Shown here: piece after piece, positions 47,510 to 47,968 of the stretch
Position numbering within the stretch: position 1 is the stretch's first letter
How the letters are laid out: the number at the start of each line of letters is the position of its first letter
Sequence record: MZ892903.1
DNA: 64,000 bases
Strand: one strand, 5' to 3'
Origin: Escherichia phage ELT1
Translations under genes and position numbers: made by a program
Notes under the pieces: generated by a model
What the model saw: the letters and a program-made list of their open reading frames with translations, nothing else
What the model was told of the DNA's origin: nothing
Databases searched by the model: none

Positions 47510-47968
47510 TTATTTTAAATCATCTGCCCAATCGAGTTTAAGAGGCTCTTTGTATTCACGGTCAAGTACAACCGGAATTTGTACATCACCGCTAAATGAT
47601 AAGGGCCCAACATTATAAGACAATGTTATATGCGGTGTGTAATCATCAAAATCGTGTGTAGCACCTAGTGCCCGCGCATACATGTGTCGACAGCGCAGAT
47701 ATTCAGAATCTAGCACAAGTACAAGAGTCGATCCATCTTGTGTTTTCCACACTTCTAAATGTCCAGAAGAAGCTACTTCAAAACTTCCACTCGATGGAAC
47801 ATATGGAACATTTACTCTCGAATAACATATGGTCGAATGAATTTTTTCTCTAGGAACTGGATTAGGAACACGTAAAGAGCGCTGGAGTTCTTCCAGCGCG
47901 TCAAGTGTTAATTCTGAAAACTTAGCTGCTACATAAAGACCCGTTGAAAAGTCTTTAAATTCCATCAT
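47510..47968 (-). CDS. 57B: 2H-phosphoesterase family protein, T4 57B/Acb1-like (anti-CBASS cyclic-nucleotide phosphodiesterase)
   Basis: 152 aa; two H-x-T/S motifs (HSTI, HITL); position between ipI and 57A. Confidence 0.65.

Follow-up and report, generated by a model that had tools for sequence, protein, structure and literature searches.

The T4-like phage ELT1 carries a gene 57B (acb1) whose predicted product is identical to T4 Acb1, beside a frameshifted ipI

The minus-strand open reading frame (ORF) that lies between the tail-fibre assembly chaperone gene 57A and the internal protein gene ipI in Escherichia phage ELT1 raises the question of whether it encodes the anti-CBASS protein Acb1 or an enzyme of RNA metabolism, as its usual database label would have it, and whether it forms an anti-defence cluster with its neighbour. 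The window analysed here is a stretch of 64,000 nucleotides of the ELT1 record (MZ892903.1). A sequence-only reading of this window had assigned the ORF to the 57B/Acb1-type 2H phosphoesterases and the surrounding stretch to an anti-defence cluster. The name Acb1 was given to the T4 gene 57B product (NP_049750.1) by Hobbs et al. 2022 (PMC9117128), as that reading had held, where activity-guided fractionation had traced a 3'3'-cGAMP-degrading activity to the T4 protein (PMC9117128). The coordinates of all features are collected in Table 1.

The ORF list placed the frame on the minus strand with the extent and the length of 152 residues given by the sequence-only reading, and its translation starts with MMEFKDF. 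Comparison of the translation with T4 gp57B (NP_049750.1, translated from locus T4p137 of NC_000866) by BLASTP showed 152 identities in 152 positions, and a tblastn comparison with the 57B gene of the T4 record X03016 likewise showed a 100% match. Thus, the alignment to T4 Acb1 that had been proposed as a check leaves no position different, and the predicted product is T4 Acb1 residue for residue, beyond a mere relative. The protein matched the Pfam family PF23474, described as 'Anti-CBASS protein Acb1', with 202.7 bits (E=2.7e-60), where the gathering threshold is 27 bits, and the match spans the whole profile (positions 1-144 of 144). Its best match among solved structures was the Acb1 of Erwinia phage FBB1 (PDB 7T26/7T27, E=4.2e-62, HMMER). 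A tblastn search of 50,697 phage records found homologues in 1471 of them, 445 of which have at least 99% identity. The family match and the number of homologues rule out that the ORF arose by chance. This copy of acb1 is intact and has no lesion.

Structure-based details published for T4 and FBB1 Acb1 could be placed directly on the window protein. The active site is a tetrad of two HxT motifs formed by H44, T46, H113 and T115, the bases of the ligand are stacked by Y12, W74, F107 and W147, E141 contacts the adenine N6, and residues 145-152 form a lid (PMC9117128). A regular-expression scan of the translation showed exactly two H-x-[ST] motifs, the HSTI and HITL that had been picked out by the sequence-only reading, at residues 44-47 and 113-116. 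All four residues of the catalytic tetrad are present, and the five ligand-contact residues (Y12, W74, F107, E141 and W147) are all at the expected positions. The two histidines, whose agreement with the Acb1 active site had been named as the decisive check, are the residues altered in the catalytically dead T4 enzyme (H44A/H113A, PMC9117128). The protein extends through residue 152, and from its sequence identity the lid in this copy would be expected to play the same role over a bound cyclic nucleotide.

In the HMMER alignment, both HxT motifs coincide with their counterparts in the Acb1 of the FBB1 crystal structure (7T26). The FBB1 and window proteins are 68% identical across the 142 positions that align, interrupted by one gap of a single residue, and structures of the FBB1 protein are available in the apo form (7T26) and with a 3'3'-cGAMP analogue (7T27). 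Y12, E141 and W147 are kept in FBB1, as are both HxT motifs, whereas W74 and F107 of T4 are replaced by F and Y, respectively, both of which are aromatic; the host genus also differs. The 2H phosphoesterase fold of the window protein would follow from this level of identity to the crystal structure. Conservation was further assessed in an alignment of the window protein with seven homologues, ranging from 68% down to 33% identity to it (Erwinia phage FBB1, Serratia phage Muldoon, Aeromonas phage 60AhydR15PP, Acinetobacter phage Berthold, Vibrio phage D482, Cronobacter phage JC03 and Salicola phage SCTP-2). The aligned homologues span Straboviridae, Muldoonvirus and a Salicola jumbo phage. The eight sequences share 13 invariant columns, among which are H44, T46, H113, T115 and Y12.

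Table 1. Features of the acb1 locus, in positions of the window.
Feature	Position	Strand	Remarks
gene 1 (dNMP kinase)	48195..48920	-	first in the run 1-57A-57B; PF21448, E=1.5e-106
57A (tail-fibre assembly chaperone)	47965..48195	-	76 aa; PF17594, E=2.7e-50
acb1 (T4 gene 57B), anti-CBASS 2H cyclic-oligonucleotide phosphodiesterase (predicted)	47510..47968	-	152 aa + stop; T4 identity, PF23474, 7T26
HSTI, first HxT catalytic motif (H44-S45-T46-I47)	47828..47839	-	codons CAT TCG ACC ATA
HITL, second HxT catalytic motif (H113-I114-T115-L116)	47621..47632	-	codons CAT ATA ACA TTG
C-terminal lid codons, residues 145-152 including W147	47513..47536	-	lid as defined in Hobbs 2022 (PMC9117128)
early-promoter-like site	47468..47496	-	TTTACA-17-TACTAT, with TG; consensus scan; just 3' of the acb1 stop
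ipI (internal protein I)	47183..47437	-	84 aa vs. 95 aa in T4; PF11634, E=2.2e-44, profile positions 1-63 of 76
ipI frameshift site	47183..47194	-	2-nt deletion between 47188 and 47189 and two nearby substitutions; new TGA at 47183-47185
trna.4, trna.3 and trna.2 homologues	further downstream	-	phrog_1692, phrog_1411, phrog_2023
tRNA cluster	downstream of the trna.4/.3/.2 homologues	-	ARAGORN

Comparison of the acb1 gene with that of T4 showed that 10 of 459 nucleotides differ, all 10 changes being synonymous and none non-synonymous. Nine of the differences fall on third codon positions, and the remaining one alters the first position of a Leu codon (CTT vs. TTA). The gene 1 protein has nine amino-acid differences from its T4 counterpart, and the 57A protein has two substitutions and a four-residue deletion. 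As all 10 changes in acb1 are synonymous while the neighbours gene 1, 57A and ipI have diverged in protein, the Acb1 protein is conserved, and the pattern of substitutions indicates continued purifying selection on it. The possibility that the window is T4 itself was rejected, as the identity to the best record is 96.9% over the 1.2-kb region and 96.2% over 24 kb. The top matches over 24 kb are all Tequatrovirus, and the window on this evidence comes from a T4-like phage of that genus rather than from T4.

The gene order 1, 57A, 57B, ipI, trna.4, trna.3, trna.2 and tRNAs is that of T4 (X03016, NC_000866). Gene 1 and 57A lie upstream of acb1, and ipI followed by the trna.4, trna.3 and trna.2 homologues and the tRNAs lies downstream, so that the T4 57B position ascribed to the ORF proved to be correct. 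The TGA stop of 57A overlaps the ATG of acb1 (GAA TGA TGG, an ATGA overlap), as in T4, and the stop of gene 1 overlaps the start of 57A. The overlaps along 1-57A-57B place acb1 as the last cistron of a coupled run, which implies that its translation would be coupled with that of 57A. The promoter-like site beyond the acb1 stop aligns with PE2, the promoter annotated in T4 record X03016 as the driver of ipI. By the consensus match and homology to T4, ipI is thus predicted to have its own early promoter. The T4 and window loci thus have in common all 152 residues of Acb1, the neighbouring genes and the stop overlap with 57A, and they differ in the synonymous changes in acb1, in a 57A product that is four residues shorter in the window, and in the frameshifted ipI.

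Several other differences from T4 were observed around the locus. The shortening of gp57A results from an in-frame 12-nt deletion near the C-terminus, which ends in ...SADEE compared with ...SADEAKDEE in T4 (76 aa vs. 80 aa). The tRNA cluster contains an extra tRNA-Asn (GTT) compared with T4, and its CAT-anticodon tRNA is called Met by ARAGORN but is annotated as tRNA-Ile at the same position in the T4 records (positions 44958-45029 and 45036-45110, both on the minus strand). A 223-aa ORF (44218-44889, minus strand) separates tRNA-Arg from the main tRNA cluster and takes the slot that holds the GIY-YIG homing endonuclease gene segB in T4; its weak matches to DUF559 (Vsr-like endonuclease), RAP and NUMOD3 suggest a different homing-endonuclease-like gene in that slot. 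Between the trna.2 homologue and tRNA-Gln, where T4 has only a spacer of about 100 bp, the window has an inserted 174-aa ORF (45696-46220, minus strand) that belongs to phrog_2290 (unknown function) and gave no Pfam match. Next to gene 3, at its end distal to gene 1, a 224-aa ORF (49607-50281, minus strand) has weak, sub-threshold matches to HNH endonucleases. T4 has no gene between genes 3 and 2, and this ORF is probably a mobile homing-endonuclease insertion.

Identity to T4 Acb1, the catalytic motifs, synteny and purifying selection together assign the Acb1 function to the ORF, and the chemistry is taken from the published work on the T4 and FBB1 proteins. The ORF is accordingly read as the acb1 of a T4-like phage, a putative metal-independent 2H phosphoesterase that would destroy CBASS cyclic-nucleotide signals through H44, T46, H113 and T115, with a probability of about 97%. 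All the defining features of Acb1 that a sequence can show are present, and the sequence contains nothing that speaks against this reading. Published biochemistry showed that Acb1 is metal-independent and distorts the bound cyclic nucleotide for attack by the 2'-OH, that it cleaves cyclic di- and trinucleotides with at least one AMP (3'3'-cGAMP, cUA, cAAA and cAAG), and that it leaves cGG, cA4 and 3'2'-cGAMP uncut (PMC9117128). It prevents the CBASS effectors Cap5, CapV and Cap4 from being activated, and T4 without acb1 loses cGAMP hydrolysis and has a defect of more than 300-fold on CBASS hosts, with normal growth on hosts without CBASS (PMC9117128).

In ELT1, the enzyme would bind cyclic di- or trinucleotide immune signals containing at least one adenosine, such as 3'3'-cGAMP, cUA, cAAA and cAAG. 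Y12, W74, F107 and W147 would stack on the bases, E141 would read the adenine N6, and the lid of residues 145-152 would close over the ligand. The H44/T46/H113/T115 tetrad is then predicted to catalyse a reaction in which the 2'-OH of adenosine attacks the 3'-5' phosphodiester, giving a 2',3'-cyclic phosphate intermediate that would be resolved to a linear product with a 3'-phosphate, e.g., GpAp. With the signal destroyed, the CBASS effectors would stay inactive, abortive suicide of the host would be avoided and the phage cycle could be completed. Expression of acb1 in ELT1 is presumably the same as in T4. Viral destruction of a host second messenger is also carried out by Apyc1, the AcrIII-1 ring nuclease and poxin, although these have folds unrelated to that of Acb1; Apyc1, for example, has a metallo-beta-lactamase fold with two Zn ions and acts on cyclic mononucleotides.

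The commonest database label of the gene, 'RNA ligase' or 'RNA 2',3'-cyclic phosphodiesterase', points to a different activity, that of a LigT-like 2'-5' RNA ligase or an RNA 2',3'-cyclic phosphodiesterase engaged in RNA or tRNA repair. The PHROG family phrog_755 is described as 'RNA ligase', T4 57B and many of its orthologues are so annotated in RefSeq, and the gene is close to the tRNA cluster. LigT belongs to the 2H superfamily, and the reaction of Acb1 also proceeds through a 2',3'-cyclic phosphate (PMC9117128); 2'-5' RNA ligases and CPDases share with Acb1 the pair of HxT/S motifs, a metal-independent acid-base chemistry and this intermediate. However, LigT-type enzymes act on RNA ends whereas Acb1 acts on a cyclic oligonucleotide signal, and the lid at the C-terminus is a feature of Acb1 alone. 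The sole Pfam family matched by the window protein at E<=0.01 is Acb1, with no match to the LigT, 2_5_RNA_ligase2 or CPDase families at that threshold, and the RNA ligase assignment was rejected on the lack of any LigT-type match. The label itself derives from distant similarity of the 2H/LigT fold rather than from an assay, whereas the identical T4 protein was isolated as a cGAMP-degrading activity and T4 deleted for acb1 lost all cGAMP hydrolysis while remaining normal on hosts without CBASS. A role in RNA repair is therefore very unlikely, and a side activity of Acb1 on RNA ends, though conceivable, has nothing in its support. The records that match best mostly label the gene 'hypothetical protein' or 'RNA ligase', and the name Acb1 is in none of the records listed. 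As T4p137 in RefSeq (NC_000866) and phrog_755 are both still labelled 'RNA ligase', automated annotation would miss a well-characterised anti-CBASS function.

A further reading accepts acb1 as intact and holds it to be, on balance, a liability or a neutral relic, as guard systems could turn Acb1 into a trigger of defence. Panoptes guard systems (types I and II) sense the depletion of cyclic nucleotides. Type II Panoptes restricts phages Bas35-37, whose acb1 is intact, and is evaded by Bas43, with a nonsense mutation in acb1, and by acb1 escape mutants of Bas35; overexpression of acb1 with VnOptSE also lowered colony formation. Some Tevenvirinae such as Bas43 have a disrupted acb1, and loss of the gene can allow escape from Panoptes. 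However, deletion of acb1 from T4 left type I Panoptes defence unaffected, and the excess of synonymous over non-synonymous changes in the window copy speaks for continued selection on the protein rather than for a relic. Moreover, this reading concerns host-dependent consequences of the same molecular function. Presence of acb1 alone is no proof of benefit on every host. That the gene is a net liability or a relic in ELT1 is extremely improbable.

The neighbouring gene does carry a lesion. The predicted ipI product does not differ from T4 IPI up to and including residue 82 and then reads L-S-stop, where T4 has SAAHLKIIAKNLL. The lesion was counted relative to the closest alleles, those of phages KMB40, SfPhi01 and vB_EcoM_F1; in the five-way alignment, the 3' end of the gene reads TTA--AGCTGAG in the window and TCAGTAGCTCAG in these three phages. 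Downstream of the frameshift, the ancestral stop TAATAA has been retained. The mature protein, IPI*, keeps residues 1-63 of the 76 in the NMR structure 2JUB with a 100% match, and the last 13 residues are gone. Among 169 phage records, not one agrees with the 3' end of the window allele at an identity of 99% or more, and the assembly collection has no entry for exactly this 84-aa product. IPI is an injected protein that inhibits the type IV restriction enzyme GmrSD, and later work confirmed that Ip1 inhibits the CT596 GmrSD specifically. With the final 13 residues of IPI* lost to the frameshift, anti-GmrSD activity of the window ipI cannot be assumed.

The frameshift may have several origins. 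One is a genuine allele under selection, which might either change specificity towards GmrSD or deliberately inactivate the gene so that a host system sensing IPI is evaded, a reading that might be likened to the loss of acb1 that escapes Panoptes. This is an unlikely origin, and the alternatives are a recent neutral mutation or an error of sequencing or assembly. If the frameshift were selected, an arms race would be under way at the acb1-ipI pair of this phage. The adjoining frameshift is the only mildly unusual item at the acb1 locus.

These observations bear on the proposed anti-defence cluster. Hobbs et al. (PMC9117128) noted that T4 Acb1 is encoded beside ipI, an inhibitor of the GmrS/GmrD restriction enzyme, and made the clustering argument there. 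The adjacency of the two genes stands in the window. The wider claim needs qualifying, as ipI is frameshifted and is predicted to have an early promoter of its own, and the other flank of acb1 consists of the 57A chaperone and the dNMP kinase. With its own promoter, ipI would be a neighbour of acb1 rather than an operon partner. Thus, the 'cluster' is two adjacent genes in predicted separate transcription units, not an island or an operon, and one of the two, ipI, is possibly defective. Besides acb1 and ipI, the neighbourhood holds the chaperone, the kinase and small ORFs without an assigned function.

As a known T4 gene carried by a close relative of T4, acb1 in ELT1 is already known, and the finding has little weight beyond correct annotation. 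For the biology of the phage, an intact acb1 predicts resistance to CBASS systems that use adenosine-containing cyclic di- or trinucleotide signals, together with possible sensitivity to Panoptes-type guard systems. The truncated ipI suggests that the phage may be restricted by hosts with CT596-type GmrSD, which could bear on the prediction of its host range.
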